Virus record (IMG/VR): IMGVR_UViG_3300040801_002879
Coordinates: 23,418-87,417 of that record
Reading direction: 5' to 3' (one strand)
From: a virus
Lineage: Duplodnaviria > Heunggongvirae > Uroviricota > Caudoviricetes
Length of the DNA stretch: 64,000 nucleotides
The notes beneath the pieces were generated by a model. It was given only the letters and a program-made list of their open reading frames with translations, was not told the origin of the DNA and did not search any database. Numbering within the stretch: position 1 is the stretch's first letter; each line of letters opens with the position of its first letter. Position numbers and translations under genes: made by a program. This document shows positions 45,207-61,232 of this stretch, in pieces.

Positions 45207-45240
45207 AGGTCAAGGGTAGTTATGTTAACAGATTGTTAAA
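45186..45240 (-). promoter_or_regulatory. Promoter cassette (TTAACAATCTGTTAACAT, then TTGACC-16-TATAAT)
   Basis: The -35 is at 45208-13 and the -10 at 45186-91. Confidence 0.65.
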
Positions 45241-47558: not shown

Positions 47559-47801
47559 CTACCAAAACAACTCTCTATCCGATATTCTCTCGATAGCCCA
47601 CACTATGCCCCATAATAATAACCCTGTTCCGACTATCGCAAGGATTGCCCATATACCCCCGATAAGGTAAAGCAGGTATAGTATTATTCCTGTGAATGTA
47701 AATGCTGGTATCATTATCATTGCTATTGCGAGTTTATCTAATAACTTCTCTTTGCTCATTTCTGCTCCTTCCAGCGAAAACCTTATACAAACGTTATCCA
47801 T
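47559..47801 (-). CDS. Small membrane protein
   Basis: It has two TM helices. Confidence 0.45.
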   Translation of the reverse strand: MDNVCIRFSLEGAEMSKEKLLDKLAIAMIMIPAFTFTGIILYLLYLIGGIWAILAIVGTGLLLWGIVWAIERISDRELFW

Positions 47802-47968
47802 AAGAATATGCCTGAGAATATAAGACTCATCAGTGCCATGGATGTAAGCTGTGCCACTGTTTGCCAGTCCTTCCTGCGAATATAGCTTACTATATAGCGT
47901 ATGAATAGTGCCACAAAGAAAAGGTGGACACCTGCGCCTATTCCCGCGAAAAACCTAAATATTATCAT
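47783..47968 (-). CDS. Small membrane protein with an MIIFRFFAG N-terminus
   Basis: It is 61 aa. The TTTTCGCGGGAA motif lies inside its first 12 codons. Confidence 0.45.
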   Translation of the reverse strand: MIIFRFFAGIGAGVHLFFVALFIRYIVSYIRRKDWQTVAQLTSMALMSLIFSGIFLWITFV

Positions 47969-48219
47969 TGTGTTAACTCCTGTAAGAGGATATGGTCATC
48001 TATCCCATACCCATCTAGCTCATATAGGAAACCGTTAGGCATTGTAGCGTAGCATCGAGTGATAAGGAATCCCTGCTCCCATGTCACCACGTCACCATAC
48101 AGTGCCTGTAAGTCTTGACAGTCTCTCAGGTCTGCTGTCGCTACTACTGAAAGCATTATGATTACAAAAATTGCAAACGCACCCAAAAAACCAAACATTA
48201 TTTTCAATCCATCATCCAT
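47965..48219 (-). CDS. Small membrane protein
   Basis: It is 84 aa. Confidence 0.45.
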   Translation of the reverse strand: MDDGLKIMFGFLGAFAIFVIIMLSVVATADLRDCQDLQALYGDVVTWEQGFLITRCYATMPNGFLYELDGYGIDDHILLQELTQ

Positions 48220-48220
48220 T

Positions 48221-48505
48221 TTAGTCTCTCCAATACTCTATGTGCCTGTATTCCTGCTTTGAGATAAGGGTGCGCCCATCATAGGTTTCATCCCTCTCTG
48301 TCACTTCGAACTCCGCTAAGGGATGTTCCCGCAAGGCGTGGTCCACCAGTGCGAATACAGTCTCTAATTCGATACCCATTATCCATGCGTTGAAGATACA
48401 ATTCCCGCTATGATTATATTGCGCTATCTTGAATGTATACTCGCCTTCCCCGCTATCCTGCGCTATTATATCTTCTATCTCCCGATTATAAGTAGCATTG
48501 TCCAT
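48221..48505 (-). CDS. Hypothetical protein
   Basis: It is 94 aa. Confidence 0.45.
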   Translation of the reverse strand: MDNATYNREIEDIIAQDSGEGEYTFKIAQYNHSGNCIFNAWIMGIELETVFALVDHALREHPLAEFEVTERDETYDGRTLISKQEYRHIEYWRD

Positions 48506-48514
48506 ACTTTACTC

Positions 48515-48859
48515 CTATTTTAAGGTGTGTCTGATAGCTATGTCCATAGCATATGCTACGAGACTATTACTTGCATCCTCATCGTCTCCTGTCAAAGCTC
48601 TTTTCCACGCTTCTACGGTCTGCACTGGTGATGCCAGTCTCAAAGCTTCTGTTACCGCTTCTACCAGCAGTTCCTCTTTCCCGCATTCATACAGGTGATT
48701 TGCCAGTGCACCTACCAGAGCAGGAATGTCATCATTCAACAGGTAGCCAGTGCCCCCCATATCCACGGTATCATTCTCGAAAGCTAGGGTGTAACAACCC
48801 TTCTTTTCCAGATAAAAATTCTTATCAACATTATCTCGCCAAAGTTCTTTGCCCATCAT
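48515..48859 (-). CDS. Hypothetical protein
   Basis: It is 114 aa. Confidence 0.5.
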   Translation of the reverse strand: MMGKELWRDNVDKNFYLEKKGCYTLAFENDTVDMGGTGYLLNDDIPALVGALANHLYECGKEELLVEAVTEALRLASPVQTVEAWKRALTGDDEDASNSLVAYAMDIAIRHTLK

Positions 48860-48913
48860 AACTCCTTTATATTCTCGTGACTAAACTAATTCTACCATAA
48901 GGTATCTTGAATG

Positions 48914-49135
48914 TCAAGCAACTGCTACCACTACGCCATAGGCTACGGTATCTTGAGGGTACTCCCGTGTCTGCCATGGGGATTCATACAGCCCCTGCCC
49001 GATACGATGTACCTGCACGTGCCCAAACTTGTCTCTCGTGGCATCATCCCATTCAACCATGTTGGTGTCTCCCTCTTCCCCGATAATATATAATGCCCGA
49101 ATGTCAAACTTTTCTGCTAACTCAATTAGTGTCAT
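48914..49135 (-). CDS. Hypothetical protein
   Basis: It is 73 aa. The motif TTTCGCGGGAAAGGAATAATATG lies at its translation start. Confidence 0.45.
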   Translation of the reverse strand: MTLIELAEKFDIRALYIIGEEGDTNMVEWDDATRDKFGHVQVHRIGQGLYESPWQTREYPQDTVAYGVVVAVA

Positions 49136-49156
49136 ATTATTCCTTTCCCGCGAAAT

Positions 49157-49531
49157 CTAGTCTAAACTTGTACTAAAATTATACCCCTGCTCCCGCAACC
49201 AGTCAAGTACCCCCTCACTACTCAACTGCCACCCCTGATAAGGCAATCCTGCGATAACCTGCCACTTATACCTTTGATAATAAAGAGCAGTATCAGCCCA
49301 CGTGTCTACTTTACTTTTATTCAACACCTTACTAAGGACTGTATACAATATTGCCCACGCTAGTTGAGCAGGACCACTCCCACCATACCCCCACTCAAAA
49401 CCTGTAGGAGAGTGATTACAATGCTCTAAATATAACGGAAGAGGTTCTGGCTCAAAACCAACCGCCCAATAATATACCTGCTTACTCTCAATTGGCTGTG
49501 CAGGGTCTCTACTTCCCGCGAAAATAATCAT
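49157..49531 (-). CDS. Hypothetical protein with an MIIFAGSRD N-terminus
   Basis: It is 124 aa. The TTTTCGCGGGAA motif lies at codons 3-6. Confidence 0.5.
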   Translation of the reverse strand: MIIFAGSRDPAQPIESKQVYYWAVGFEPEPLPLYLEHCNHSPTGFEWGYGGSGPAQLAWAILYTVLSKVLNKSKVDTWADTALYYQRYKWQVIAGLPYQGWQLSSEGVLDWLREQGYNFSTSLD

Positions 49532-49848
49532 TATATCCTTCCTCTCATGTACTTAGTAATATCTCGAAAGCCTACACCAATAACCTCAGACCAATCACCA
49601 TCATCGAGATTTTCCACCACATCCCCAATAGACATAGAGGTATGGTCCAACTGGAAGTCTCGGATAGCCTGCCTAGCTTCGCCATTAGGCGACCATATTT
49701 CCCCCTGCATTTGGACAAACACATCTTCCAAGTTCTCTGCCTCTAGGCGCATGATAGGTACATAGCAATTGGTAAAGTCCTCAAGAGCCTGTTCTGTATC
49801 TTGAATATAGTTCCTCTTATACCATACCTGATAATTAGGCATATGCAA
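49531..49848 (-). CDS. Hypothetical protein
   Basis: It is 105 aa. Confidence 0.5.
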   Translation of the reverse strand: MHMPNYQVWYKRNYIQDTEQALEDFTNCYVPIMRLEAENLEDVFVQMQGEIWSPNGEARQAIRDFQLDHTSMSIGDVVENLDDGDWSEVIGVGFRDITKYMRGRI

Positions 49849-50215
49849 ACATCCTTTCTAACTGTTCTGGAATATCGTAAAAATTGCAGTACTGATTCCT
49901 ACCCCCTGTATAATCCTTCTCATGTTCCGCAGTGCGAATGAGCAAGCGTTCAAACCATGAGTCCTGCCAGTAGCGCACATCTGAGATAGAGATATACACC
50001 CAACGGTCAAGGCTTTCATTGTACAGGAAACCAGAGGTTGTAAACCAGTTACCCTTCCAGCCTGTTTTCAACTCCCAACCTGTGCCTTTGAGCATACGTT
50101 TAAGGTCTGAACGTGTGTCTCGAATAAACTGAGCAAACGCATCAGACCGATTTTCGTGGGTTGTAGACCAACCCCTGTTATTGAAGTCGTAACCTACCCA
50201 TTTGCGTGCTTTCAT
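49835..50215 (-). CDS. Hypothetical protein
   Basis: It is 126 aa and is the first gene behind the TTGACA/TACAAT promoter near 50243-50275. Confidence 0.5.
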   Translation of the reverse strand: MKARKWVGYDFNNRGWSTTHENRSDAFAQFIRDTRSDLKRMLKGTGWELKTGWKGNWFTTSGFLYNESLDRWVYISISDVRYWQDSWFERLLIRTAEHEKDYTGGRNQYCNFYDIPEQLERMFAYA

Positions 50216-50304
50216 CTGTTATCTCCTATTGTCTCGTGACTTGACTGTAATAATTGTACCACATGCCAGCAGGTTGTCAAGGGTCAAATCTCGAATTGCT
50301 GCAC

Positions 50305-50430
50305 CAGTTCCCGCGAAATTTATCTTGATTTCGTATAGTTATTCCCGCGAAAATAAGGGTTTCGTATAGACAAAATATGTGCCATTTCGTATAGCCTAGC
50401 CCAGGAATTTGGGAGCATTTCGTATAGCCA
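50305..50430 (-). repeat. Iteron-like array: four CTATACGAAA words, two of them followed at N7-10 by TTTCGCGGGAA
   Basis: On the + strand, tttcgtatag is at 50329, 50360, 50385 and 50418, and ttcccgcgaaa is at 50308 and 50342. All copies share one orientation. Confidence 0.65.
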
Positions 50431-50461
50431 AACGAAGGGGGAGCTCCGCAAATCGGACTAT

Positions 50462-50653
50462 TTAGGTCCGATAAGGGGAGTTTTCAACCCAACAAAACCA
50501 TGAGAAGGGTGAGGTACGCATCCACCGCCCTGGGTTGAGTTTAGCTATTGCTCGCATGGTCTCAGGGTCTTGGTAGTTCTTATCAAGAACCACGAGCAAA
50601 GCATCTTCATCAATAACCTCAGCAGGTCTGTCACCATAATCAATTAGAAACAT
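50462..50653 (-). CDS. Hypothetical protein. Start adjusted to MFLIDYG.
   Basis: The ATG overlaps the upstream stop in ATGTTTCTAATTGA, consistent with translational coupling. Confidence 0.45.
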   Translation of the reverse strand: MFLIDYGDRPAEVIDEDALLVVLDKNYQDPETMRAIAKLNPGRWMRTSPFSWFCWVENSPYRT

Positions 50654-50834
50654 TTTGCTCCAATCTTTCAATGCGTTCTTTAGCAAGCTTTTTAACTGCG
50701 ATACCTCGTGCAATTGTCTTTCCCTCGTTGACAGCGTTAATGGTGTCAATCAATTCTTGCCAAGCCTCAATAGCTTGTTTGGTAAATCCAGCTCTTTCAT
50801 ATACAAGTGCGGTGTCTAATAATTCTAAAAACAT
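50640..50834 (-). CDS. Hypothetical protein. Start adjusted to MFLELLD, which has a GGAGGA RBS.
   Basis: The Shine-Dalgarno is 7 nt upstream of the internal ATG, and a TATAAT lies about 25 nt further upstream. Confidence 0.45.
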   Translation of the reverse strand: MFLELLDTALVYERAGFTKQAIEAWQELIDTINAVNEGKTIARGIAVKKLAKERIERLEQNVSN

Positions 50835-50888
50835 GTGTTCCTCCATTTCTAAATAGATTATACTTGAATTTCCCCCTATTGTCAAGTA

Positions 50889-51728
50889 CTAATCCCAAGT
50901 AATTCCTAAGATATAGTCGGATGCCTTTTGTGCCAATGATGCGCCTGTGAGTAACATCTGGCGGTCATTCTTGAGCACCTTTAGCCAGTGCTGAATGTAG
51001 GCGGTTGACTGCTGGATGGTATTGTCAATCCCTGCCTCAGCACATAAGAAAGCTGATGTAAATTCTGCCACCAATTCCTCAAGGCTGTACTTCTCATCCC
51101 CGAAAGTATTTTCGATTTTCCGATTGAGACGATTTTCTGCACCAGTGGAGTGTGCTAACTCGTGGAACAGCGCAGAATAAAAGTTGTCGGGAGAATTAAA
51201 ATCTTCTTTCAAAGGCATATGCACCTTATCAGTCGAAGGACTATAGCGAGCACTAATGCCACCAAATTCGATTACAGGAGCATTAGGCATACCCTGTACA
51301 ATCTCTTCTGCTCTCTCAACTGGTTCAAACTCTTCTGCTTTTGGCAAAGACTCGATAATCTCTTCTGCTTCATCAAGCTGTGAAATGGACCAAACCTTGT
51401 AGTAGCGCAACAATGGGAATTTATCACCTGTCTTTTCGCCAGCGTCATCTTTCTTGTCAATCCATTTAAAAAATGCGATATACTGAGGACTTTCACCCTT
51501 GCCAATGCGATACCCATGTTTCTTGATACTCTTGGCGGTAATCCAACGATTGACCCAACCCTCAACGTCTGCGGTATAAGATAATGTAAGCTGGTTCAAG
51601 CCACGATATACTTTGTTACTATCGTGATTGACTGCCCCGCTTGACCATGGCTGATGCCAAGGCAAATCACCCTTTTCCAAACCCTCAATAATCTTTCTGG
51701 TTACAATCTCTCTAATGTCTAATCCCAT
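50889..51728 (-). CDS. ardC: ArdC-like anti-restriction protein (N-terminal ssDNA-binding domain plus C-terminal HExxH metallopeptidase-like domain)
   Basis: The N-terminus (REIVTRKIIEGLEKGDLPWHQPW...YRGLNQLTL) matches the ArdC-N pattern. The C-terminal FHELAHSTGAENRLNRK matches the ArdC zincin motif. Confidence 0.7.
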   Translation of the reverse strand: MGLDIREIVTRKIIEGLEKGDLPWHQPWSSGAVNHDSNKVYRGLNQLTLSYTADVEGWVNRWITAKSIKKHGYRIGKGESPQYIAFFKWIDKKDDAGEKTGDKFPLLRYYKVWSISQLDEAEEIIESLPKAEEFEPVERAEEIVQGMPNAPVIEFGGISARYSPSTDKVHMPLKEDFNSPDNFYSALFHELAHSTGAENRLNRKIENTFGDEKYSLEELVAEFTSAFLCAEAGIDNTIQQSTAYIQHWLKVLKNDRQMLLTGASLAQKASDYILGITWD

Positions 51729-51763
51729 GATTTCTCCTGTTCACTTGTTTGTTAACTGTCTAT

Positions 51764-51834
51764 ATTATACCATTTTTCCGCCACCTGTCAAGCACTTTCA
51801 GAGATTGTTAACCTGTTGTTAACAAAAGAACTCC
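51764..51834 (-). promoter_or_regulatory. Promoter cassette upstream of ardC (GTTAACAACAGGTTAACAAT, then TTGACA-17-TATAAT, then leader TATAATATAGACAGTTAAC)
   Basis: The -35 is at 51787-92 and the -10 at 51764-69. Confidence 0.7.
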
Positions 51835-51885
51835 ACAAATCAGACCTTAATTGTCCAATTTGTGGAGCTCCGCACTTCGTATAGT

Positions 51886-52128
51886 CTACGAAGGCGGTTT
51901 ATTCTTTTCTGCTTTTGCATCTAGTTCCTTTACCTCATCAGCATCCAAGACTATCCTAATATGACGCTCCATGTTTGCCAAGGGGTAAAGCTCAACTATC
52001 CTACTCCCATCCTCATAATTATGAGAGATAAGATAACACTGGTTTTCTGTGTCAAATCCCCACCCATCAGTGTTGACATCCAAATTCTGCACTAAACTTG
52101 TGGTAGGTCTGAATTGAATTGAAGCCAT
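51886..52128 (-). CDS. Hypothetical protein
   Basis: It is 80 aa. It is followed by a hairpin plus T-run built from a GGAGCTCC element. Confidence 0.45.
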   Translation of the reverse strand: MASIQFRPTTSLVQNLDVNTDGWGFDTENQCYLISHNYEDGSRIVELYPLANMERHIRIVLDADEVKELDAKAEKNKPPS

Positions 52129-52267
52129 AATTTTCCTTTCACTAGTGAATAAGAGCTTGTCTTTGGTTCCGATAAGCGTGGGAGTTCATCACCCGTTGTT
52201 TCAAAGGACTTTCACCTTGCCTACGGTGGGATTTTAACCCTTAGTCCCAAAGTCTCCAAGCTCTCAG

Positions 52268-52340
52268 TACCCCTAGAAGGACTCGAACCCTCATTTCCTG
52301 TTTAGAAGACAGGTGCTCTATTCCATTGAGCTATAGGGGC
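52268..52340 (-). tRNA. tRNA-Arg (anticodon UCU)
   Basis: The acceptor is GCCCCTA/TAGGGGT with discriminator A. The D-arm is GCTC...GAGC. The anticodon stem CCTGT/ACAGG is perfect, with loop CTTCTAA. The T-arm is GAGGGTTCGAGTCCTTC. Confidence 0.75.
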
Positions 52341-52429
52341 AAATATCGGGCTGACAGTCCTCCGCAGTTAACTCTAATCGGTAGGTCACTTACGCTCTGC
52401 TTCTTTTAGAAAGACCCGATGTTCTCACG

Positions 52430-52684
52430 CTAGATTGTTGAAAACCGAAATTCTGCTGGCACGCCAACAAGTGAAGAAGGAACACTCACATTGTTCTCAG
52501 GATTGTCCTTGTCCAGATGCAACCAGATAAATCCTGTGCGGTCTGTAACTGTCACAAACGCTGTCTTGTCGTCATAATAGAAGTCTGACCCCGCCACTGA
52601 TTTTGTGGTGTGGCAATCTGTACCCACAAGTTCATTCACTTCACCGTCATATTTTTCAATCGCCAAAAAATAAAATTCATTCAT
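52430..52684 (-). CDS. Hypothetical protein
   Basis: It is 84 aa. Confidence 0.45.
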   Translation of the reverse strand: MNEFYFLAIEKYDGEVNELVGTDCHTTKSVAGSDFYYDDKTAFVTVTDRTGFIWLHLDKDNPENNVSVPSSLVGVPAEFRFSTI

Positions 52685-52743
52685 TTCGCTACTCCTTGTC
52701 TAAATTTGGACTAAATATATTCTACCATAAACCTTACTACTTG

Positions 52744-52944
52744 TCAAGCATAAATTTCAAAGTCATCATTCACTTCATAAAGGTCTGTAATCTCTGCAAG
52801 GGACACATCCTCAAGCATTTCCCATTCTGCCTCGCCTTTAGTTTCATTCTGGCTAGCAATCCTGCGTGCTTCCTCGATGCTATCCGCATCAATAATTGTT
52901 TCCCCTGAGTGTGGTACTGAATAACCTACGTAAAATTTAGCCAT
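52744..52944 (-). CDS. Hypothetical acidic protein
   Basis: It is 66 aa. Confidence 0.45.
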   Translation of the reverse strand: MAKFYVGYSVPHSGETIIDADSIEEARRIASQNETKGEAEWEMLEDVSLAEITDLYEVNDDFEIYA

Positions 52945-53161
52945 TTCTATCTCTCCTTGGTATTCTCTCGATATATTGTTCGATTTTCACTGTGTGCATC
53001 CGACCATCAGCCTTGCGCTCTTTGGTAAGGTGAAAGTTACTTCGCCATGCGTGCCCCTGCTCGCACCACGATACACCTTGGGGACAACGCTCTCTCGAAT
53101 AGACTTCCCCGCCACACTCAGGACAGTGCTCGGTGTCTACATAAATCCTCTCGATTGTCAT
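52937..53161 (-). CDS. Zinc-ribbon protein
   Basis: It carries CPECGG...CPQG..C motifs. Confidence 0.45.
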   Translation of the reverse strand: MTIERIYVDTEHCPECGGEVYSRERCPQGVSWCEQGHAWRSNFHLTKERKADGRMHTVKIEQYIERIPRRDRNG

Positions 53162-53295
53162 TCTTCATCCTCTCTCGCTACGAGCAGAACTTGATTACAG
53201 TCCTCACACTCAACGCATACCTCACCAATCAACTCATAATGAGTTATCACAATCTTGTGACCAACATGCTCAATTAAGATTTCCCAATCATTCAT
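53158..53295 (-). CDS. Small Cys-containing protein. Start adjusted to MNDWEIL.
   Basis: The longer ORF overlaps the upstream gene by 83 nt. The internal ATG abuts the upstream stop. Confidence 0.4.
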   Translation of the reverse strand: MNDWEILIEHVGHKIVITHYELIGEVCVECEDCNQVLLVAREDEE

Positions 53296-53296
53296 T

Positions 53297-53509
53297 TTAA
53301 TATTCCTCCATTGAACCACAACCGAACCTGCCTTCTGCCCTGTCAGCGCACCTGTCGCACTGGTAGCCGAGCTTGACATCCTTAGCGGTCAACTGGTTTT
53401 CTCGACCACATGTAGGACAAGGATACTCACGCTTGCCAGCACGTAAAGCGGAGCGACCCCAAGGGTTTGCAAATTCACTTCTATCTTCGTAACCGTAACC
53501 GTAACCCAT
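53297..53509 (-). CDS. Zinc-ribbon protein
   Basis: It carries CPTCGRE...CDRC motifs and is the first gene behind the promoter cassette at 53544-53606. Confidence 0.5.
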   Translation of the reverse strand: MGYGYGYEDRSEFANPWGRSALRAGKREYPCPTCGRENQLTAKDVKLGYQCDRCADRAEGRFGCGSMEEY

Positions 53510-53543
53510 TTTGTATCTCCTTTGTTGTTTCTTGACTGTCTAT

Positions 53544-53606
53544 ATTATAGGATATTCCAGCGAGAAAGTCAAGGGTGAATTTGGATTGTTAACCTGTTGT
53601 TAAACT
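53544..53606 (-). promoter_or_regulatory. Promoter cassette (GTTTAACAACAGGTTAACAAT, then TTGACT-17-TATAAT, then leader TATAATATAGACAGTCAAG)
   Basis: The -35 is at 53567-72 and the -10 at 53544-49. Confidence 0.7.
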
Positions 53607-53681
53607 AGGACAAATAAGACCAGGATTGTCGCATTTGCGGAGCTCCATTTCGGACTATTTAGGTCCGAATTGGAATATTAT

Positions 53682-53996
53682 TTATCCGATTGCTACCACC
53701 CTATACCAAACATCGTCAATCTTTCTAAGTTTATCACTGCGGAAGTCTGCAATTAAGTTCTGCAAGTCTCCGAGCTCGTAAGGCTCAGGCAGGGACTCGA
53801 CCAGACGCTTAGCATCAACCAGCCCAACCGCCCCATCTAAGGCAAAGCGTACAAATTTTATAGCCCCAATTTTGGTAAAAGTGTCATTCTTATTAAATTC
53901 CATATTTCGTGTAGTATTCATTAAAACCTCTTTCCTGTAGTAGTTAGGGACCCAATCCAACCGATAAGCACAAATATAAGTAGAAAGCCTATACAA
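53682..53996 (-). CDS. Hypothetical protein (TTG start in the ORF track)
   Basis: It is 104 aa. Confidence 0.4.
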   Translation of the reverse strand: MYRLSTYICAYRLDWVPNYYRKEVLMNTTRNMEFNKNDTFTKIGAIKFVRFALDGAVGLVDAKRLVESLPEPYELGDLQNLIADFRSDKLRKIDDVWYRVVAIG

Positions 53997-54004
53997 ACCA
54001 TATA

Positions 54005-54685
54005 CTAGCCCCCCTTTGCTGGTTGCGTACCGTGAATTGTCAGAGCAAATGACTCACCATTTCGAATGTGGTCAAAATCATCGGAAGGCTCATCAATGCA
54101 GGCAGGCGTAAGACCCATAGCCAGAGCATCCTCAACCGTTTCCACGACCTTAACCGCTGGTTCATCAGTCACCATGTTATCGAATACCCCACCGTATGAA
54201 TAAACAAGGCTCATATTTTCAGGCATATCCATTGACACGTAAGGCAACATTTTCGTATAGCCAAAGAAAATAATATCGGGGTTCATTTTAGCAACCTCGA
54301 CCCAAGCCAGAAAATAAGCTTTAGAGTAGAAGTCACCGCTGGCGTGTATACGTACAACCTCAACACGTGCAGGGATGTTATCGCTTATAAGCGTAGCCAT
54401 ATCTTGAATGGACAGACCCTGTAAAGCATCGAAGTTATCCCAATGATTAGAGCGTGCCGAAGGACTGAAAGCCTCAATGCTCGCGGCATAGCATCGGAAT
54501 TGGCAGTCTTTCCCATCTGTGATTTTACCAGTTTCTCGATTGGCAGTGGACTTGCAAATTTTAGCCGCTGGACATGTGTGACCCGCAGGCAGGTCAAACC
54601 CAACCACGTGTGTTTTAGGAATACCTAAATAATCGCCTAGCTCACGAAGTTTACGATTATTCTTAGAAAAATGAAGTGTGCTCAT
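54005..54685 (-). CDS. Hypothetical Cys-cluster protein
   Basis: It is 226 aa with GHTCPAAKICK...CQFRCYA motifs, and is the first gene behind the promoter cassette at 54720-54791. Confidence 0.55.
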   Translation of the reverse strand: MSTLHFSKNNRKLRELGDYLGIPKTHVVGFDLPAGHTCPAAKICKSTANRETGKITDGKDCQFRCYAASIEAFSPSARSNHWDNFDALQGLSIQDMATLISDNIPARVEVVRIHASGDFYSKAYFLAWVEVAKMNPDIIFFGYTKMLPYVSMDMPENMSLVYSYGGVFDNMVTDEPAVKVVETVEDALAMGLTPACIDEPSDDFDHIRNGESFALTIHGTQPAKGG

Positions 54686-54719
54686 TAGTGCCTTTCTTGA
54701 CTAGTTGATTGTAAGTACT

Positions 54720-54791
54720 ATTATACTATCTCACCGCCAGAAGTCAAGGGTAAAAAGCACCAATTTTCCATCGTTAACAATCTGTTAACAT
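54720..54791 (-). promoter_or_regulatory. Promoter cassette (ATGTTAACAGATTGTTAACG, then TTGACT-16-TATAAT)
   Basis: The -35 is at 54742-47 and the -10 at 54720-25. Confidence 0.65.
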
Positions 54792-54903
54792 TCCCCCGTT
54801 AATTCGTATAGTCTAGCCCCCAGGAATTAGGACAAATAGGACCAACTTTGTCCGATTTGCGGAGCTCCACATTTTTATTAACCTGTTGTTAACATTCCAA
54901 GCC

Positions 54904-54931
54904 TTGACAAGCCACGAGAAAAGAGTATAAT
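54904..54931 (+). promoter_or_regulatory. Sigma70-type promoter TTGACA-16-TATAAT for the gene at 54962
   Basis: The hexamers are consensus and are followed by the conserved TATAATATAGATAGTCAAC leader. Confidence 0.7.
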
Positions 54932-54961
54932 ATAGATAGTCAACAATAAAGGAGTTTTGAA

Positions 54962-55165
54962 ATGACAGAACGATGGGTAGAATCTGGTAAATTAGTTTTT
55001 CATGGTGGACAGTGGGTTTACTGCTTCACCACCTATGCAGGAGCAAAGGCTCATGCTAACCTAATGAACGCCTGTTCTTATAAATTTGAATATCGAGTGG
55101 AAAAAATAGACAATTTTTATTTCATTGGTATATATGATGAAGGAAGTTTCTGGACATACCACTAA
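54962..55165 (+). CDS. Hypothetical small protein (+ strand island)
   Basis: It is 67 aa, with its own TTGACA-16-TATAAT promoter, a conserved leader and AAGGAG. Confidence 0.55.
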   Translation: MTERWVESGKLVFHGGQWVYCFTTYAGAKAHANLMNACSYKFEYRVEKIDNFYFIGIYDEGSFWTYH

Positions 55166-55258
55166 TAAATACTCCTAATTGGACCTAATTAGTCCAGTTA
55201 CGGAGCTCCGCAATTCAGACTATTTGGGTCCAAATTGGGAGATTTTCAGGGGGTTTTC

Positions 55259-55435
55259 ACACTTCTTCACGCATTTTTCGCTTTCTTTCACGCTGTTTCT
55301 TGCGCTTAATTTCCTCTGCACGCTCACGCTGTAGGCGTTCAATCAGGAAGACGGACTTGCTCCCAACCGTCATACCGTTCCGTTGTTTGTTGCGTTTCTT
55401 GTCACGCCTGCGCTGTTTATCAATCTGGTAAGCCA
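55259..55435 (-). CDS. Highly basic protein of 58 aa (below the ORF-track cutoff): MAYQIDKQRRRDKKRNKQRNG...
   Basis: I translated it by eye. About 45% of residues are Lys/Arg. It has a GGAGAGGATTAAAATG RBS. Confidence 0.4.
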
Positions 55436-55437
55436 TT

Positions 55438-55659
55438 TTAATCCTCTCCTATAGGATAATAATTGTGTTGTTCAAAATCAAAAATATATGTTACTGGTTT
55501 GTCAACTTCCACGACCCGCCACTCATCTACACCCATCCAACGAGAAAATAAATCTCTCGCATAAGCTTCTGCCTCTTTCTCTGTGGCAAAGACTAAAGCG
55601 TTAGTATAGAATTTTTGTCCACCGATTTCCTTAAATTCTGCTTGAAAAGCCATGTTCAA
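55438..55659 (-). CDS. Hypothetical protein
   Basis: It is 73 aa. Confidence 0.45.
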   Translation of the reverse strand: MNMAFQAEFKEIGGQKFYTNALVFATEKEAEAYARDLFSRWMGVDEWRVVEVDKPVTYIFDFEQHNYYPIGED

Positions 55660-55698
55660 CTCCTTGTTGACTAATGTATAATAATCTTACCATGTCAC

Positions 55699-55884
55699 TT
55701 AGGAATTGTCAAGGGGCAATTTATAATCATCATCATCGGGCATAATTACGTCAACCAATTCCCAATCAGGGAACTTTTGACCCGCGAAATTTTTAAGGTC
55801 ATTTCGTGTAGTATTTTCGGGCACATCTACTGCAATCTCTTTAAATTTAGTCTTAGCTAAAATTACTCTAATTCGTATAGTCAT
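55699..55884 (-). CDS. Hypothetical protein; its start lies inside a duplicated AAGGAGCTCCGATGACTATACGAA module
   Basis: It is 61 aa, beginning MTIRIRV. Confidence 0.45.
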   Translation of the reverse strand: MTIRIRVILAKTKFKEIAVDVPENTTRNDLKNFAGQKFPDWELVDVIMPDDDDYKLPLDNS

Positions 55885-56008
55885 CGGAGCTCCTTTCGTA
55901 TAGTCATAGAGAGCTTGGTCTATGAAGCAAAGTCAGGAATCTCACCTAGTCGTGGACTGTAACCCATTAGCACTAGCGTGCCCGCATACATAGAACCAAG
56001 CCCTCTTA

Positions 56009-56089
56009 GTGGAGCCCGCAGGAGTCGAACCTGCTTCTCACCTAAGTACGTCTACCTAGGGTGCACCCTGCTGATTAAGAGTCGAGCCC
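56009..56089 (-). ncRNA. tRNA-like domain RNA with alanine identity elements and no anticodon arm (resembles a tmRNA tRNA-like domain)
   Basis: The acceptor is GGGGCTC/GGGCTCC with a G3.U70 wobble and discriminator A73. The T-arm GCAGG-TTCGACT-CCTGC is perfect. The 5' part GGGGCTCGACTC...AGCAGGG resembles the tmRNA 5' end. A sigma70 promoter lies about 100 nt upstream at 56197-56225. Confidence 0.45.
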
Positions 56090-56196
56090 CATAAATTATA
56101 TCCAGTGCCCGCCCACCGACACCGATGTTAGCCCGCCCATACACCTATTGGCTAACGCCCTCATCAACACAATCAAGGAGAAACATCACTATAAAG

Positions 56197-56225
56197 ATTA
56201 TAACACATATACTGATGTTTGTCAA
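56197..56225 (-). promoter_or_regulatory. Sigma70 promoter TTGACA-17-TATAAT driving the transcript that ends in the tRNA-like domain RNA
   Basis: The -35 is at 56220-25 and the -10 at 56197-202. No ORF lies downstream. Confidence 0.6.
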
Positions 56226-56232
56226 GTACTAA

Positions 56233-56305
56233 TTCGTGGCTGAGGATTTGAACCTCGTCTGCCTAACAGACCGCCCGCTTTTATTTTTATTCAAGCAACC
56301 ACGAA
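56233..56305 (-). ncRNA. tRNA-like element (non-canonical cloverleaf)
   Basis: A perfect 7-bp acceptor (TTCGTGG/CCACGAA), a T-loop GAGGTTCAAATCCTC and a hairpin GTCTG-TTAGG-CAGAC are present. The D-arm is A-rich and irregular. Confidence 0.35.
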
Positions 56306-56308
56306 ACG

Positions 56309-56366
56309 AGTCGTAGGGGGGATTTGAACCACACCATTCTCTAGTAGTCTTGTCCATTAGACGACT
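56309..56366 (-). ncRNA. Minimal tRNA-like element of 58 nt, related to the tRNA at 29179
   Basis: The acceptor AGTCGTC/TACGACT and T-loop GGTTCAAATCC are present. It shares AGTCGT...CCCCCC(N)ACGACT ends with the tRNA at 29179-29254. Confidence 0.3.
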
Positions 56367-56609
56367 ACAACTCTCAGTTATCTTGCGCTTGATAACTTTT
56401 CGTGGGAGAGCAGGGGTTTTCACCCTGATGCCTGTAGCCATCCCCTCTTACAGGCGTTCTCTCTCGGAGACTTCACTCATCTAACGAGACTTCTCACCCG
56501 AAAAATCATCAAACTAATGTTAAAGTTCTGGTGACTGTCAGTGTAAGCCGATTGCTATAATCTGATTACAAGTTTCCGACCTTTGCCGATTGCTTGCCTG
56601 TCACCTAAC
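56367..56609 (-). ncRNA. Promoter-driven structured non-coding RNA of about 240 nt, upstream of the tRNA-like elements
   Basis: A sigma70 promoter (-35 at 56639-44, -10 at 56617-22) sits upstream. No ORF longer than 35 aa is present. Several perfect hairpins are present (GCCTGTA..TACAGGC, GTTATC..GATAAC, CAGGG..CCCTG), plus a long-range GGTGACAG/CTGTCACC pairing and repeated GCAATCGGC and GAAGTCTC words. Confidence 0.45.
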
Positions 56610-56665
56610 TATTTATATTATACCAGCTTGCCTAGAGAAGTCAAGCACTTTATGTTAACGTTTTG

Positions 56666-56911
56666 TTATTCCTCTACGTAATACTGAGTAGTAATTGTAA
56701 GCGTGCCTTCTTCCTCAATATGCTTTGCGATATGAGCAAGCGCATCTAAAGCAGGATTTTTTGATTTTACCCAAGCCTCATCTTTAACAGATGTTTCTAT
56801 AAAAGCTTCGCTTTCGGGAAATATATTAAGAGTATATTCTTCTCCCTCTTCGCCCAATGGTGCATAATTTTTCTGCGTAATTTTAATAAGACCTAAGTGT
56901 AGTTCTTTCAT
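56666..56911 (-). CDS. Hypothetical protein. Start adjusted to MKELHLG, which has an AAAGGAG RBS.
   Basis: The promoter -10 (56944-49) lies inside the longer ORF version. The internal ATG has a good Shine-Dalgarno. Confidence 0.5.
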   Translation of the reverse strand: MKELHLGLIKITQKNYAPLGEEGEEYTLNIFPESEAFIETSVKDEAWVKSKNPALDALAHIAKHIEEEGTLTITTQYYVEE

Positions 56912-56943
56912 CCGTAACTCCTTTGTTGTGGTTAACTGTAATA

Positions 56944-57005
56944 ATTGTACCACCTATCTATAGTATGTCAAGGGTGTTTTGAAGTTGTTAACAATCCGTT
57001 AACAT
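56944..57005 (-). promoter_or_regulatory. Promoter cassette (ATGTTAACGGATTGTTAACA, then TTGACA-16-TACAAT)
   Basis: The -35 is at 56966-71 and the -10 at 56944-49. Confidence 0.6.
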
Positions 57006-57103
57006 TCGCCAGGAATAAGATAAATAAGACCTAATTACTCCAATTTACGGAGCTCCAAATCGGACAATTACAGTCAGAATTATCCGATTTAGATTTCGTA
57101 TAG

Positions 57104-57838
57104 TTATTTCATTATCTGCTCCTTTACAAAGTCCATGGTGCGGGTTTCCAATTCCTTTTGTAAAATTCTATCAGGCTCTTGTGCTTTGAAAAAAGCCTCA
57201 ACCTGCTCAAACTTGCGCTTGTGCCAATCATCAATCAAAGATAAGAATACAGCTAATTCTACCTCATTATTCTTAATCTTCATTAACATCCTTCTAAAGC
57301 GTGAGTCACTCTCAAACCAAAACGCCTCATTCATAGGCATACCGCTTGCCACTCGCTCCGCTAATAATAAAACTCTCAAAGCGTGGTGAGCATCCTTAGT
57401 ATCATAACCAAACTCATCAACAATAGGTTGAGTCTTTGCAGTACCTTTGTATAAGGTGCTCATTTTTTCTCGGTGCATCCCCAAGCAAGCAAACCCAAAG
57501 GAGCGCAAATGAATTTTTGAAATTCTATCAGCATTTTCTTTCAACCAAATAGGAAACCCACCAATACCACCATGAAACTTAGTTGAGAATAAAACCTCAA
57601 CAAAATTTGGATTAGCTTTCCATAACAAGTGAGATAATTGTCGGATGTCATGTACCGTATAATCAAACTCATCGGACTGCTTGCCATTAGAGAACATCCT
57701 ACCCTTGTATAAGTCCTCAAACGTGGGAGCAACAAAGAACTTCCAGTCCTCATCACTCGCAGGCGTGTTTAGATTATAGTTATGCGACCCTGTTAATGCT
57801 TGAATTATAACTCGTCTACCACCAAATCGTTCTGTCAT
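57104..57838 (-). CDS. Pol-beta-superfamily nucleotidyltransferase (RlaP/DUF-type, about 245 aa)
   Basis: The N-terminal motif ALTGSHNYNLNTPASDEDW fits hG[GS]x9-13Dx[DE] of minimal nucleotidyltransferases. The size fits stand-alone nucleotidyltransferases. Confidence 0.6.
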   Translation of the reverse strand: MTERFGGRRVIIQALTGSHNYNLNTPASDEDWKFFVAPTFEDLYKGRMFSNGKQSDEFDYTVHDIRQLSHLLWKANPNFVEVLFSTKFHGGIGGFPIWLKENADRISKIHLRSFGFACLGMHREKMSTLYKGTAKTQPIVDEFGYDTKDAHHALRVLLLAERVASGMPMNEAFWFESDSRFRRMLMKIKNNEVELAVFLSLIDDWHKRKFEQVEAFFKAQEPDRILQKELETRTMDFVKEQIMK

Positions 57839-57839
57839 T

Positions 57840-58046
57840 TTAGTCCTCTTTCAAGTGTTCAATTTTAGCTTTGATTATGTTCAGCGCATCCTCACGACCC
57901 GCCCAATACAATTCTGCATCACCACCACCGCAAGCGTCAAAGTTGCTCTTAGCGATTGTAATATCTCGGTCAATTGCTTTCAAAATCTCGTCTACTGTCA
58001 TGTTTATCTCCTTTAGTTGATTAGTTATATTATACCATCTTGCCAC
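57840..58046 (-). CDS. Hypothetical protein
   Basis: It is 68 aa and starts 2 nt after the upstream stop. Confidence 0.45.
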   Translation of the reverse strand: MARWYNITNQLKEINMTVDEILKAIDRDITIAKSNFDACGGGDAELYWAGREDALNIIKAKIEHLKED

Positions 58047-58156
58047 AAGAAGTCAAGGGTAAATCCCAAATCTGATAAATCGGATAAGATTTGTCTGAAT
58101 TGGAGCTCCGCAATTCGGACAATTCCCCTCTTATTTGTCCTATTTGCGGGCTGTGC

Positions 58157-58432
58157 TTACACATCTAAGGCTCGTACAACCTCTATCAAAGCATAGTCAT
58201 AGCAGTCATCCACATAGACCACATTAACCCGACTGGTAAACCATCGCCCAGGACCATTACTACCAGCAGGAACATGCCCTGTAGTATACATAAACAGCTC
58301 TCTAACATCTTCTTTGTCCTCTGGCAAAGGACCATCACATCTATCCTCTGCTACCATTCTAAAGAGGTTTACGCCTACATCTTGGTGTAATAAATAACCG
58401 CCAACCTTCTCAATCCTTACCTGTATATCCAT
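58157..58432 (-). CDS. Hypothetical protein
   Basis: It is 91 aa. Confidence 0.45.
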   Translation of the reverse strand: MDIQVRIEKVGGYLLHQDVGVNLFRMVAEDRCDGPLPEDKEDVRELFMYTTGHVPAGSNGPGRWFTSRVNVVYVDDCYDYALIEVVRALDV

Positions 58433-58683
58433 TAGTCACTCCACTCCATTCTATCATAAAATGCGCCAGCGTTCATTTCCATGGCTTGCTCTAGTACATC
58501 CATATCCTCATCACCAAATAACTCACGTTCTGCCTCTGCTACTTCCTCATCGGTGCAGTAGCTGTGACTTCCACACTCAGGGCACTTGCCTTCGTAGACT
58601 TCCTCTACGTACTGCGTGCCACAAGCGTTACAATAAACCCAATTGACTTCCACTAAATCGCCATTCCAATTTCGTACTGCCAT
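58432..58683 (-). CDS. Zinc-ribbon protein
   Basis: It carries CNACGT...CPECGS motifs. Confidence 0.45.
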   Translation of the reverse strand: MAVRNWNGDLVEVNWVYCNACGTQYVEEVYEGKCPECGSHSYCTDEEVAEAERELFGDEDMDVLEQAMEMNAGAFYDRMEWSD

Positions 58684-58945
58684 TTTGTCTCCTTAGACTG
58701 TTTGATTGATGTATATATTATAAGCTGCGGGAGCCAGAAGGTCAAGCGATTTTCGGCATCGTTAACAAATCGTTAACATTCGCCTGCGCCTGTCCCTGAG
58801 TCTAAATATGGATAAATCAGACCAGGTTTATCCGATTTCGGAGCTCCGCTAATCGGACTAATCAGGTCCAATTAGTCCAATAAGCCGAGCAAGCCAGCAA
58901 TCAGGATGCCTAAGCCAAACAGTATCATCATGCCTACGACTGCCA

Positions 58946-59124
58946 CTATTCCACCTCTCGCTCTTCAATAATCATCACGCTACGAGCCATGGGGCGCACA
59001 TTATCCAAAGCTTCTACAACCTCAATCTTGCGCTTTTCCTCTTCGGCACGCTCTCTGGTGGCAAAGACTCGCACTTCCCTTGCCCTGTCCTCTCTCTCAA
59101 ACATTATAAATACTTTACCAGTCA
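58946..59124 (-). CDS. Hypothetical Arg/Glu-rich protein. Start adjusted to MTGKVF.
   Basis: The longer version is Met-rich and overlaps the upstream gene by 60 nt. Confidence 0.4.
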
Positions 59125-59321
59125 TCATCATCCTCATCTTCCCAATCGTCATCCCAATCGTCATCACCAATATCAATGTCGCCTAAGCCAAACTCAGCGA
59201 GCTTGCGGTCAATTTCTTCCTCATCCTCATAAAACAGGTCTTCCATCATGTCATTAAATTCCTGTTCTTCTGCCCACATATCAGCTTCTGCATCAAATTC
59301 ATCTGCGTAAAAATCACTCAT
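59115..59321 (-). CDS. Highly acidic Asp/Trp-rich protein
   Basis: It is 68 aa with a C-terminal DDDWDDDWEDEDDDDW. Confidence 0.45.
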   Translation of the reverse strand: MSDFYADEFDAEADMWAEEQEFNDMMEDLFYEDEEEIDRKLAEFGLGDIDIGDDDWDDDWEDEDDDDW

Positions 59322-59784
59322 TGTTTTCTCCTGTAGTCTAAGTTTGTACTTACAATTATACTCAATTTCGCCAGCTTGTCAAGGGTTATCTGGAAAGTCG
59401 TCTTAGTTCCTTCCACATCAGCCCGAACATGAGTGAAAGAATGATTGTACCTACATTCCACACGCCACCTTGGATATAGCTTGCAATCGCTTGAACGGTT
59501 TCAATAATCAGGTTTTCCATCTCGTTTCCTCTCGTGTAGTTGACTGTATATATTATACACCCCTGCCCCTGCCCTTGTCAATAGCAAATTCCAGTTGTTA
59601 ACATAACGTTAACATTCAATTCGGACAATTCGGATAAGAATACTCCGATTTCGGAGCTCCCTAAAGTGGACAATTTAGGTCCAATTTGTCTTATTACATT
59701 TGTCATATCCTGGGTATAACATTCTGCTTGACACAGGAGCTGGCGTATGGTAATATTATTATATCAACAGAACAGGAGAAAATT

Positions 59785-60054
59785 ATGAGCACAGTTTATT
59801 TCCAGAACGCACAGGGCAACTTTGAAATTGACTTATACCATGACTGGGTAGATGAGGTTACAGGGGTTGAAGATGTGAACATCCTGAGCCTGTCAGAAGA
59901 TGCTCAAGAGTACGTACAACGTTTGCAAAACCTTGGCGGTGACGTAGAAGCTCAACACTCAGACGGTGATAAAATCTTATGCGAGCTATTAACAAAGCTT
60001 GGATATGGTGCAGTGGTGGAAGAATGGGAAAAATTACATCGGTGGTATTCTTAA
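59785..60054 (+). CDS. Hypothetical protein. Start at MSTVYFQ with an AGGAG RBS; the ORF track extends upstream from a TTG.
   Basis: A TTGACA-17-TAATAT promoter lies at 59728-59756. The Shine-Dalgarno is 7 nt before the ATG. Confidence 0.5.
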   Translation: MSTVYFQNAQGNFEIDLYHDWVDEVTGVEDVNILSLSEDAQEYVQRLQNLGGDVEAQHSDGDKILCELLTKLGYGAVVEEWEKLHRWYS

Positions 60055-60105
60055 CAATCTGTTAACATAAAATCGCTTGACTTCTCACTGGCAATCGCTT
60101 ATAAT
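60050..60105 (+). promoter_or_regulatory. Promoter cassette: TTAACAATCTGTTAACAT direct repeat, then TTGACT-17-TATAAT, then conserved leader
   Basis: TTGACT is at 60077-82 and TATAAT at 60100-05. The GTTAACA direct repeat is immediately upstream and overlaps the stop codon of the preceding gene. Confidence 0.75.
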
Positions 60106-60138
60106 ATATATAGTCAACTAGTCAAACAGGAGTTTGAA

Positions 60139-60402
60139 ATGAACGAAACATTTGGAATTACATACGAAATTAAAAATCCAGTTCCTTGGCAACCAAACAA
60201 AACGGTGCGAGTGAAAGATACAGGCTTTACAACGATGCACGATGCTAGCTCACGAGCTGGTAAGGAAATCCAGAAACCTTTCATCCAGTCGGTATGCTCC
60301 TACCAGCGTACAGGAAAAAATGCTGGTGCAATCGGTGTGTATCTGGCAAAGGATAGCCAAGGGCACGTGGTCAAGCGTGAGTACAATCCCTCACGTTCTT
60401 AA
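60139..60402 (+). CDS. Hypothetical protein
   Basis: It is 87 aa, with a consensus promoter cassette at 60050-60105 and the conserved AGTCAACTAGTCAA leader. Confidence 0.55.
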   Translation: MNETFGITYEIKNPVPWQPNKTVRVKDTGFTTMHDASSRAGKEIQKPFIQSVCSYQRTGKNAGAIGVYLAKDSQGHVVKREYNPSRS

Positions 60403-60404
60403 CA

Positions 60405-60452
60405 AAACGTTAACATTATAGGCTTGACTTTCAGGGGGAGATAGCCTATAAT
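60405..60452 (+). promoter_or_regulatory. Promoter cassette (GTTAACA repeat, then TTGACT-17-TATAAT)
   Basis: TTGACT is at 60424-29 and TATAAT at 60447-52. Confidence 0.75.
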
Positions 60453-60482
60453 ATAAGTACAGTCAACTAGTCAAGGAATTTT

Positions 60483-60790: not shown

Positions 60791-60825
60791 ATATATACAG
60801 TCAAACAACAACCAAGGAGCAAAAA

Positions 60826-61108: not shown

Positions 61109-61154
61109 GGATAAATTGGATATAAAAGGTAGGAATTGTCCACTTCTCCCGAAA

Positions 61155-61232
61155 ATTAAGCCTCGTTTCGCATAGTCATTCTCCCGAAAATTTAAGGCGA
61201 TTTCGCATAGTCAGCGTTTCGTATAGCCAGTA
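61155..61232 (-). repeat. Tandem copies of the bipartite motif (GACTATGCGAAA-N10-TTTTCGGGAGAA, two copies, plus CTATACGAAA)
   Basis: A roughly 35-bp unit is duplicated in tandem and is related to the array at 50305-50430. Confidence 0.6.

Follow-up and report, generated by a model that had tools for sequence, protein, structure and literature searches.

Two conserved sequence words in the early region of an uncultured siphovirus as candidate operator and boundary elements

Why two short sequence words should recur, over and again on one strand, in the early region of a phage genome is the question raised by an intergenic gap at 50.3 kb in a 64-kb stretch (the window) of the 87-kb contig IMGVR_UViG_3300040801_002879, of which about 23 kb lie outside the window. 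In the initial annotation four copies of CTATACGAAA within 100 bp, two of them followed by TTTCGCGGGAA, were described in this gap, and they are present as described (array A, Table 1). Three readings had been offered, namely an iteron-like origin, binding sites for a phage regulator and a promoter class for a non-sigma70 factor. On balance the two words, hereafter CTATACGAA and TTCGCGGGAA, are probably distinct cis-regulatory elements, TTCGCGGGAA being an operator and CTATACGAA a boundary element, which are multimerised in array A.

That the words are repeated and non-random was borne out by a motif search with orientation statistics, in which both were over-represented and confined to the - strand of the window. 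All 11 copies of CTATACGAA(A) are on the - strand (0 on +), and when the 64 kb are read on that strand it is their most frequent 9-mer; the commonest 10-mer, CTATACGAAA, has eight exact copies there as opposed to zero on the + strand. When at most one mismatch was allowed, CTATACGAAA gave 19 matches (4.5 expected); 0 of 100 shuffles had as many. TTTCGCGGGAA has five exact copies, all on the - strand (0 on +), and 7 matches against 0.43 expected when up to one mismatch is allowed. Of the 11 exact CTATACGAA copies, nine fall outside coding sequence, the non-coding share of the sequence being 21%. The words are spread over more than 10 separate loci across 16 kb, and in the middle and late regions (1-47 kb) neither has copies beyond chance-level near matches. 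Both were found again in eight related uncultured phages, and they are confirmed as real, conserved signals. The relatives were collected as syntenic contigs of eight phages through homologues of the adjacent ArdC-like protein (ArdC identity 81-55%), one further relative being found through a pattern scan; the comparison covers partial loci only, cited below by labels beginning with L. The co-orientation of all copies noted initially holds within the window, and for CTATACGAA it breaks down in the distant relatives L006, L003, L133 and L134. Beyond what had been annotated, a third bipartite unit was found in a small gene (55779-55811), as were TTCGCGGGAA variants in promoter spacers at 53555-53565 and 49190-49198.

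The positions of TTCGCGGGAA relative to promoters and its turnover between relatives carry the case for an operator. Among seven phages, 55 TTCGCGGGAA-type sites with at most one mismatch are in sense orientation and 0 in antisense. Five sites lie at +7/+8 from the start of the -35 of strong promoters, that is in the spacer (0.16 at random, reached in 0 of 5000 runs), five at -18 to -15 (0.33 at random, 1 of 5000 runs) and three at +49 to +52, about +15 in the leader (0.33 at random, 23 of 5000 runs); altogether 23 of 66 sites (10.8 expected) fall between -60 and +70 of a promoter. At the promoter of a gene for a 73-amino-acid (aa) protein the word has moved between phages: L135 and L012 have a full TTCGCGGGAG in the spacer, L001 has copies at -18 and in the leader, L002 has one at -18, and the window has a spacer variant and a leader copy. 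In L002 the orthologue (6349) of the spacer site at 53555 is TTCGCTGGAA, at +8 relative to the start of the -35.

A swap of the whole word was seen in L134, which has zero TTCGCGGGAA and carries AAGTCAGGG at the equivalent promoter places, all on the + strand: in a spacer at +7, at -17 of the ArdC promoter, in a leader, twice in array A and beside a -35. The CTATACGAA-type words are kept in this phage. At the -17 place of the ArdC promoter L012 and L135 have TTCGCGAGAA. The residues F-A-G-S of the DUF6166 protein are encoded by identical nucleotides, TTCGCGGGAAG, in five motif-bearing phages and by TTTGCTGGTAG in L134, the F-A-G codons being TTCGCGGGA in the motif-bearing phages as opposed to TTTGCTGGT in L134. 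In L003 the word occurs in all three reading frames, judged from its coordinates. Selection therefore acts on the nucleotide word, and this selection, the fixed relation to core promoters and the co-evolution with a reader are together the signature of an operator and its regulator. The suggestion of binding sites for a phage regulator is thus the one favoured by the promoter-relative positions, the turnover at an orthologous promoter and the swapped motif in one relative. The sequence suggests that a protein binds these words, that binding affects repression or timing, and that the predicted promoters are real transcription start regions.

Array A lies, as had been stated, in an intergenic gap of about 250 bp upstream of a sigma70 promoter, the gap being 246 bp between 50462 and 50215 and the promoter P50280. 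Its CTATACGAAA copies are 33, 25 and 31 bp apart and its two TTTCGCGGGAA copies 34 bp apart, and in the last two, bipartite, units TTCGCGGGAA follows after gaps of 8 and 11. For arrays A and B the basic unit is CTATRCGAAA, a gap (mode 12 bp), TTCGSGRGAA and about 3 bp, in total 31-35 bp; the 17 bipartite units have gaps of 0, 1, 2, 3, 8, 11, 12 and 13 bp, with a mode of 12. The array is orthologous in seven phages upstream of the DUF6166-operon promoter, with 1-4 CTATACGAA and 1-3 TTCGCGGGAA copies. In alignment A1, with the orthologues of L001, L002, L012, L135, L003 and L133, the motif bases of the array are invariant and the spacers have diverged, and the -35 and extended -10 of P50280 are invariant also. 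P50280 is without the TTAAC-N6-TTAAC pair that most other promoters have, as is P49206, and both bear TTCGCGGGAA. A small open reading frame, 50451..50320, runs across array A with a TTG start and a weak Shine-Dalgarno match; it was rejected as a gene because copy-number differences among relatives disrupt its frame.

In the mechanism proposed, a lineage-specific regulator would bind TTCGCGGGAA around the promoters of a delayed-early block at 50.3-47.5 kb starting at P50280, its sites being placed between -35 and -10, a short way upstream of the -35 or within the first 15-25 bases transcribed. It would set promoter timing, most simply as a repressor because the -35 and -10 stay consensus. A second factor would bind CTATACGAA and GGAGCTCC at transcription-unit boundaries, and array A would be a composite control hub in which both elements, multimerised, act together on P50280. 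Since the unit of 31-35 bp amounts to about three helical turns and its halves are about 22 bp apart from start to start, about two turns, the bound proteins could share one face.

The role of CTATACGAA as a second protein-binding element, at boundaries or upstream of promoters, is less certain than that of TTCGCGGGAA. At most sites in all relatives it lies within 3-14 nt of the GC-rich palindrome GGAGCTCC, on either side, and about half of the CTATACGAA sites in all phages are 22-150 bp upstream of a co-oriented strong promoter, at no fixed distance, about 17% being estimated from promoter density. In L133 a - strand copy is found 22 bp upstream of a - strand promoter, showing that its orientation follows the promoter. 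Other copies follow stop codons or the 3' ends of tRNAs at 0-1 nt, several copies in L006 oppose the flanking genes, and L003 and L134 have inverted pairs. Word and palindrome co-vary by lineage: CTATACGCA goes with GGGGCTCCC in L133, and the palindrome is GGGGCCCC in L134 and TTTGGGCCGGCCCAAA in L006. The palindrome types set against GGAGCTCC are GGGGCTCCC, GGGGCCCC and GGGCCGGCCC.

These elements belong to intergenic modules found throughout 50-62.5 kb, in which GGAC-N7-GTCC inverted repeats, GGAGCTCC (11 copies, all at 50440-61296), CTATACGAA, the TTAAC-N6-TTAAC pair and a promoter are combined. The flanking GGAC-N7-GTCC repeats in places form with GGAGCTCC palindromes as long as 38 nt (61258-61327); RGCY forms the centre throughout. 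The phage has a C5 cytosine methyltransferase gene at 32284-33327. The TTAAC pair, which can also be written GTTAAC-N5-GTTAAC, an 11-bp direct repeat of TGTTAAC, precedes the -35 by 7-14 nt at no fewer than 16 predicted promoters at 33.6-62.3 kb, on both strands and in relatives as well. It resembles sites of the OmpR/PhoB family or of CtrA type (TTAA-N7-TTAA).

From such modules it could be argued that the words are mainly the conserved edges of recombining intergenic cassettes of terminator hairpins and promoter, kept for modular gene shuffling and not for recognition by a protein of their own. CTATACGAA does begin a stereotyped cassette of GGAGCTCC and hairpins, TTAAC pair and promoter, 0-1 nt after a stop codon or tRNA 3' end, and gene content and order between the cassettes differ among relatives, the gene of a 126-aa protein being placed differently in L135 and L133. 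The motif is also present or absent at one orthologous junction: in alignment A2 the site at 51875 is present in L001, L002, L012 and L133 and absent from L135, L134 and L003. This explanation is nevertheless considered unlikely, as it leaves unexplained the tandem multimerisation, the two-turn coupling to TTCGCGGGAA, the exactness of a 9-10-mer where the adjacent cassette diverges, and the co-variation with the palindrome.

Several findings weigh against the operator and boundary reading. A Pfam scan of about 60 window proteins found no helix-turn-helix, ribbon-helix-helix or winged-helix match, a PHROGs scan of 10 proteins around array A found no match to a DNA-binding regulator, and the best results of the family scans were weak sub-threshold zinc-ribbon matches only. 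All TTCGCGGGAA-type sites are on the sense strand, including about 20 coding ones, where composition predicts about 3:1 by an estimate from GC skew, and a plain repressor does not fully explain so complete a bias. Near starts there are 15 sites against 7.8 expected, several of them directly adjoining a Shine-Dalgarno sequence or a start codon, and an RNA-level operator would fit this too. CTATACGAA, with its variable distance to promoters, also stands at convergent operon ends with no downstream promoter. The promoters are consensus predictions, and the placement statistics are inflated because orthologous sites are not independent.

The strand bias would be explained, unlike by a plain repressor, if TTCGCGGGAA were a strand-specific, transcription-coupled element read on nascent RNA (UUCGCGGGAA) or on non-template DNA, which is held to be a minor possibility. 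It could serve a RegA-like translational repressor or a RegB-like endoribonuclease as operator, or an elongation or antitermination factor as a loading site like the ops element or the Q binding element (QBE). It is doubtful, though conceivable, that a phage factor loads onto RNA polymerase at dozens of TTCGCGGGAA sites (AAGTCAGGG in L134) and so switches the whole delayed-early block. These dozens of ops/QBE-like or RegA/RegB-like sites might then, with equal reserve, comprise the copies in promoter spacers, leaders, ribosome-binding sites and gene bodies. Besides the 55 sense to 0 antisense sites, with coding copies in all three frames, the recurrence of the word 19 nt before ATG, abutting the Shine-Dalgarno, and at +9 to +24 after ATG in 6-7 gene families points this way. 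So do tandem 32-bp repeats in a leader of L135 and L012. These consist of TTCGCGGGAG in 3-4 units directly before a start codon (L135 10173-10280 and L012 3807-3848, - strand, record coordinates), the last degenerate unit providing the Shine-Dalgarno. In this explanation CTATACGAA beside hairpins would be a boxA/RAT-like control of read-through at operon-end terminators, and hairpins or terminators do follow it after 3-4 nt at 51.88 kb, at 57.1 kb and in orthologues. On the other side, the spacer and upstream copies lie outside the transcript of their promoter, yet have sharply preferred offsets, and the swapped motif of L134 retains these offsets at the DNA level. CTATACGAA runs opposite to flanking genes in L006 and forms the inverted pairs of L003 and L134. 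The arrays are without RNA structure: the RNA folds of array A (z +0.19) and array B (z -0.16) were no better than those of shuffles, and there was no Rfam match.

Array B is the second tandem locus. The tandem pair annotated at 61.2 kb is a tandem repeat indeed, its position being refined to two copies of a 35-bp repeat at 61144-61213 (TRF score 103) with a third CTATACGAAA at 61217. It lies where a - strand operon and a + strand gene cluster converge and has no promoter downstream on its strand; copies at convergent ends were also seen in L133 (1137/1167, 4027, 6191), L006 (17220/17285) and L003 (125-256). The + strand cluster at 59686-61062 consists of four small genes within the otherwise - strand early region, each with its own promoter matching 10-11 of 12 consensus positions and a TTAAC pair, and ends at a bidirectional terminator (61076-61098) adjoining array B. 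The sole perfect DnaA box of the window, TTATCCACA at 61106-61114, lies 30 bp downstream of the array.

An origin or origins of iteron type, in which a two-domain initiator would act on the bipartite 32-35-bp unit at arrays A and B and the lone half-sites would serve autoregulation as in iteron-plasmid Rep, is thought rather unlikely. Tandem direct repeats at two or three loci, a bipartite unit with a modal gap of 12 bp, the TTC-N4-GAA symmetry of one half and 11-bp phased repeats after the unit in L006 speak for such an origin, as do the DnaA box and a moderately AT-rich stretch beside array B. That box is absent from the comparable place in L003 and is possibly there by chance. No AT-rich unwinding element was found: within 200 bp the minimum GC of 40-bp segments is 0.275 at array A and 0.25 at array B, about the 5th percentile, the 1st percentile of the window being 0.225, and the mean GC around them (0.455 and 0.42) exceeds the 0.394 of the whole window. 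No initiator family was matched by the genes flanking A and B or by the roughly 60 scanned proteins, and the replication genes are more than 10 kb away. The spacing of 33/25/31 bp is repetitive but irregular, copies number 1-4 among close relatives, and more than 10 single sites are dispersed. GC skew, proposed initially as a check, has no inflection at 50 or 61 kb and is dominated by gene orientation.

The third initial reading, a promoter used by a phage polymerase or a non-sigma70 holoenzyme, in which CTATACGAAA would be the upstream and TTCGCGGGAA the downstream element, appears scarcely credible. The start-to-start distance of about 22 bp in most units resembles a -35/-10 geometry and the orientation matches transcription in the window. 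The gap, however, varies between 0 and 13 bp, each word mostly occurs alone, and TTCGCGGGAA occurs inside sigma70 spacers and 10 or 19 nt before start codons. Array A precedes a promoter of sigma70 type, array B has no downstream gene, and the words are absent from 1-47 kb, where such promoters would be needed. L134 swapped one half only. The window gave no gene for a sigma factor or polymerase, with about 23 kb of the contig outside it and many proteins without a family. The lack of an AT-rich element, an initiator gene and RNA structure, together with the unfixed spacing of the half-sites, thus disfavours both the origin and the non-sigma70 promoter. Very unlikely also are strand-specific sites of DNA transactions such as T5-type single-strand nicks, packaging or injection-stop signals. 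The strictly one-stranded words of the window and a gene with a weak match to HNH endonucleases (31549-32211) would suit them; tandem copies 25-35 bp apart and fixed promoter offsets are unexpected, and in L133 the orientation flips with local transcription.

Among candidates that were rejected, a lox-type site has only a 9-base likeness to the loxP arm (TATACGAAG), judged coincidental; the sole inverted pair in the window (51875-51893) has a 1-bp centre, and the scanned proteins included no recombinase match. For a Chi-like element the word is too long and the offsets are promoter-specific. No match was found to the host motifs considered, the Spo0A, CodY and LexA boxes. A literature search for both words returned lox-site variants and primers only.

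The coordinates of all arrays and sites are collected in Table 1. The single words that the initial annotation placed beside stop or start codons exist, with coordinates a few bases off, and are entered at their corrected positions. The word was also rightly placed in the first codons of genes, which begin MIIFAGS (49531) and MIIFRFFAG (47968).

Table 1. Positions of arrays, single words and associated elements in the window and of AAGTCAGGG in L134; promoters are predicted.
Feature	Position	Strand	Content and context
Array A	50308..50427	-	four CTATACGAAA (50418-27, 50385-94, 50360-69, 50329-38) interleaved with two TTTCGCGGGAA (50342-52, 50308-18)
Palindrome GGAGCTCC (50440-47) and GGAC-N7-GTCC inverted repeat (50455-69)	50440..50469	-	directly upstream of array A
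Promoter P50280, sigma70-type	50253..50280	-	TTGACA-16-TACAAT with TG; operon 50215..47559 including the DUF6166 gene
Array B	61144..61226	-	CTATACGAAA (61217-26), then two 35-bp tandem units, each CTATGCGAAA-N12-TTCGGGAGAA
Array C	55779..55903	-	CTATACGAAA (55894-903), then GGAGCTCC, then CTATACGAAT (55871-80) across the start codon of a 61-aa gene
Single CTATACGAAA	57094..57103	-	just past TAA stop of RlaP-like gene
Single CTATACGAAT	54802..54811	-	between hairpin/GGAGCTCC module and TTAAC pair; 64 bp upstream of P54747
Single CTATACGAAG	51875..51884	-	1 base past stop codon, 3 nt before strong intrinsic terminator 51871-51827; 93 bp upstream of ArdC-gene promoter P51791
Variant TCTCGCTGGAA	53555..53565	-	spacer of P53572: TTGACT t TCTCGCTGGAA tatcc TATAAT
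TTTCGCGGGAA	49513..49523	-	codons 3-6 (F-A-G) of DUF6166 gene
Variant TTGCGGGAG	49190..49198	-	spacer of P49206: TTGACT gg TTGCGGGAG cagggg TATAAT
TTTCGCGGGAA	49145..49155	-	leader of 73-aa gene, 19 nt before ATG, abuts Shine-Dalgarno; about +16 from P49206
TTTCGCGGGAA	47941..47951	-	codons 6-9 of 61-aa gene (MIIFRFFAG); orthologue L002 12704
Variant TTTCGCTGGAA	47769..47779	-	19 nt before ATG of 66-aa gene, abuts Shine-Dalgarno
All exact CTATACGAAA	50329, 50360, 50385, 50418 (array A), 54251, 55894, 57094, 61217	-	
All exact TTTCGCGGGAA	47941, 49145, 49513, 50308, 50342	-	
GGAC-N7-GTCY	50455, 51842, 53652, 54839, 55181, 55217, 58855, 59668, 61267, 62347, 62425		
TTAAC pair, examples	58761-58776, 56987-57002, 54773-54788, 51807-51822, 45224-45239, 36326-36341	-	
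TTAAC pair, examples	60051-60066, 60399-60414, 60737-60752	+	
AAGTCAGGG in L134	5463, 9920, 10933, 11527, 11547, 11612, 13222		

The in-gene unit of array C, CTACACGAAA (55802-11)-N13-TTCGCGGGTC (55779-88), is kept in L002 (3830) and L135 (2404). Upstream of array C a promoter matching the consensus at 12 of 12 positions (56225-56197) precedes about 300 nt without an open reading frame (55905-56225, - strand). The core of this region, 56007-56090, holds an element resembling tRNA, which matched the tRNA-like ends of tmRNA below threshold (20 bits, E 6e-6; gathering threshold 47), and ARAGORN found nothing in the region. Similar T-arm-like stretches occur in L006 at 10980-11830, and the RNA-related genes of the phage include RtcB, an RlaP-like RNA-repair protein, tRNA-Arg(TCT) and tRNA-Ile(TAT). 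The CTATACGAAA copy abutting the RlaP-like gene is followed by hairpin modules, a TTAAC pair and then promoter P56971, 132 bp downstream, and has orthologues in L002 (2520) and, as the variant CTATACGCA, in L133 (5593). Orthologues of the 54802 site were found in L135 (3934) and in L002 as two copies (5071/5088), the second followed by CTCGCGGGAA. The CTATACGAAG copy forms with the preceding CTTCGTAGA a 19-bp near-palindrome and a + strand hairpin at 51875-51893. In L006 (15180-15235, - strand) CTATACGAAA-N11 is followed by an 11-bp phased tandem run, TTAGCGGGAAAAT CAGCGGGAAAAT CAGCAGGAAAAT TAGATGGAAAAT, which is a degenerate multimer of the second word and carries phased A-tracts. TTCAAGATA is also frequent, is mostly coding (I-Q-D) and is not a signal.

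The window as a whole has tail genes on the + strand up to 22 kb and a - strand replication block with Rad52-like, DnaB-like, PolA, DnaG, RtcB and C5 methyltransferase genes (DnaB-like, DnaG and PolA at 24-39 kb) and, also on the - strand, about 18 kb of small genes. This small-gene region has more than 15 near-consensus promoters of sigma70 type, and 91 promoter-like sites were counted against 42 expected. Megablast of the window against a cultured-phage collection gave no match, that is no close cultured relative, and the best PolA match among cultured phages (tblastn) was of 32% identity. The lineage appears to be a virulent-looking, uncultured siphovirus using host sigma70-type promoters. 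PolA homologues of close relatives (P0003, P0005, P0006, P0009, P0021, P0054) carry intein/homing-endonuclease domains (PF14890, PF05204, PF14528), which the window PolA is without. Scans of IMG/VR seeded with the 126-aa protein or PolA, or made with the bipartite pattern, were all without a match, and a metagenome scan with the bipartite pattern found two loci only, one of them a true relative. The pattern CTATACGAAA-N10-40-CTATACGAAA was matched 24 times in IMG/VR and 96 times in GTDB genomes; as none of these matches carries the other words, they were rejected as chance or unrelated repeats and give no clue to a prophage or host.

Phage early regions are well known to contain operator arrays and regulatory cassettes; new here are the words and the lineage, not the kind, and the arrays belong to no named family. 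No existing concept is overturned by them. If the operator and boundary reading is true, they would represent a compact regulatory code of at least four discrete DNA words around host-type promoters in a lineage with no close cultured relative. The word swap in a sister phage would be a natural experiment on the co-evolution of regulator and operator, and the system a source of orthogonal operator and promoter parts. Setting motif type (TTCGCGGGAA or AAGTCAGGG) against gene content across complete genomes could point to the regulator.

In theta plasmids the WH1 and WH2 domains of Rep bind 19-22-bp iterons, and half-site operators are found at the rep promoter. As in these plasmids and in lambdoid origins, the present repeats are direct and bipartite with one half re-used at promoters, but the unit is 31-35 bp and irregular, sites are dispersed, copy number is unstable, and there is no AT-rich element or adjacent initiator gene. 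The lambda Q binding element and the RfaH ops element serve one or few operons and require a pause signal; the orientation-dependent placement in a promoter spacer and in the first ~20 transcribed bases is shared with TTCGCGGGAA, which differs in having dozens of sites, some of them 16-70 bp upstream of a -35 and others deep in genes.

The PeSL of T4-type phages combine a small stem-loop with an early promoter; these cassettes recur between small variable early genes and are conserved in nucleotide sequence where the genes beside them differ (PMC2839356, PMC4122927). The intergenic GGAC-N7-GTCC hairpins, GGAGCTCC, the TTAAC pair and the near-consensus promoter between small variable genes are much alike. 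The hosts of PeSL, by contrast, are myoviruses unrelated to this siphovirus, and the extra discrete words (CTATACGAA, TTCGCGGGAA, GGAGCTCC and the TTAAC pair) and the tandem arrays are additional here.

Operators of phage and plasmid global regulators include lambda OR/OL, the phi29 p4 sites, the RK2 KorA/KorB operators and the T4 MotA boxes. Unlike at MotA-dependent promoters, which have no -35, both -35 and -10 are of consensus type in the present case. The site is moreover asymmetric and always on the sense strand even in genes, coupling joins two different words at a distance of two helical turns, and a cognate protein can only be surmised. The likeness to these operators lies in a short word that is found at many promoters, over or beside the core promoter, and multimerised at a hub, and that, as in the lambdoid immunity types, changes as a unit between relatives.

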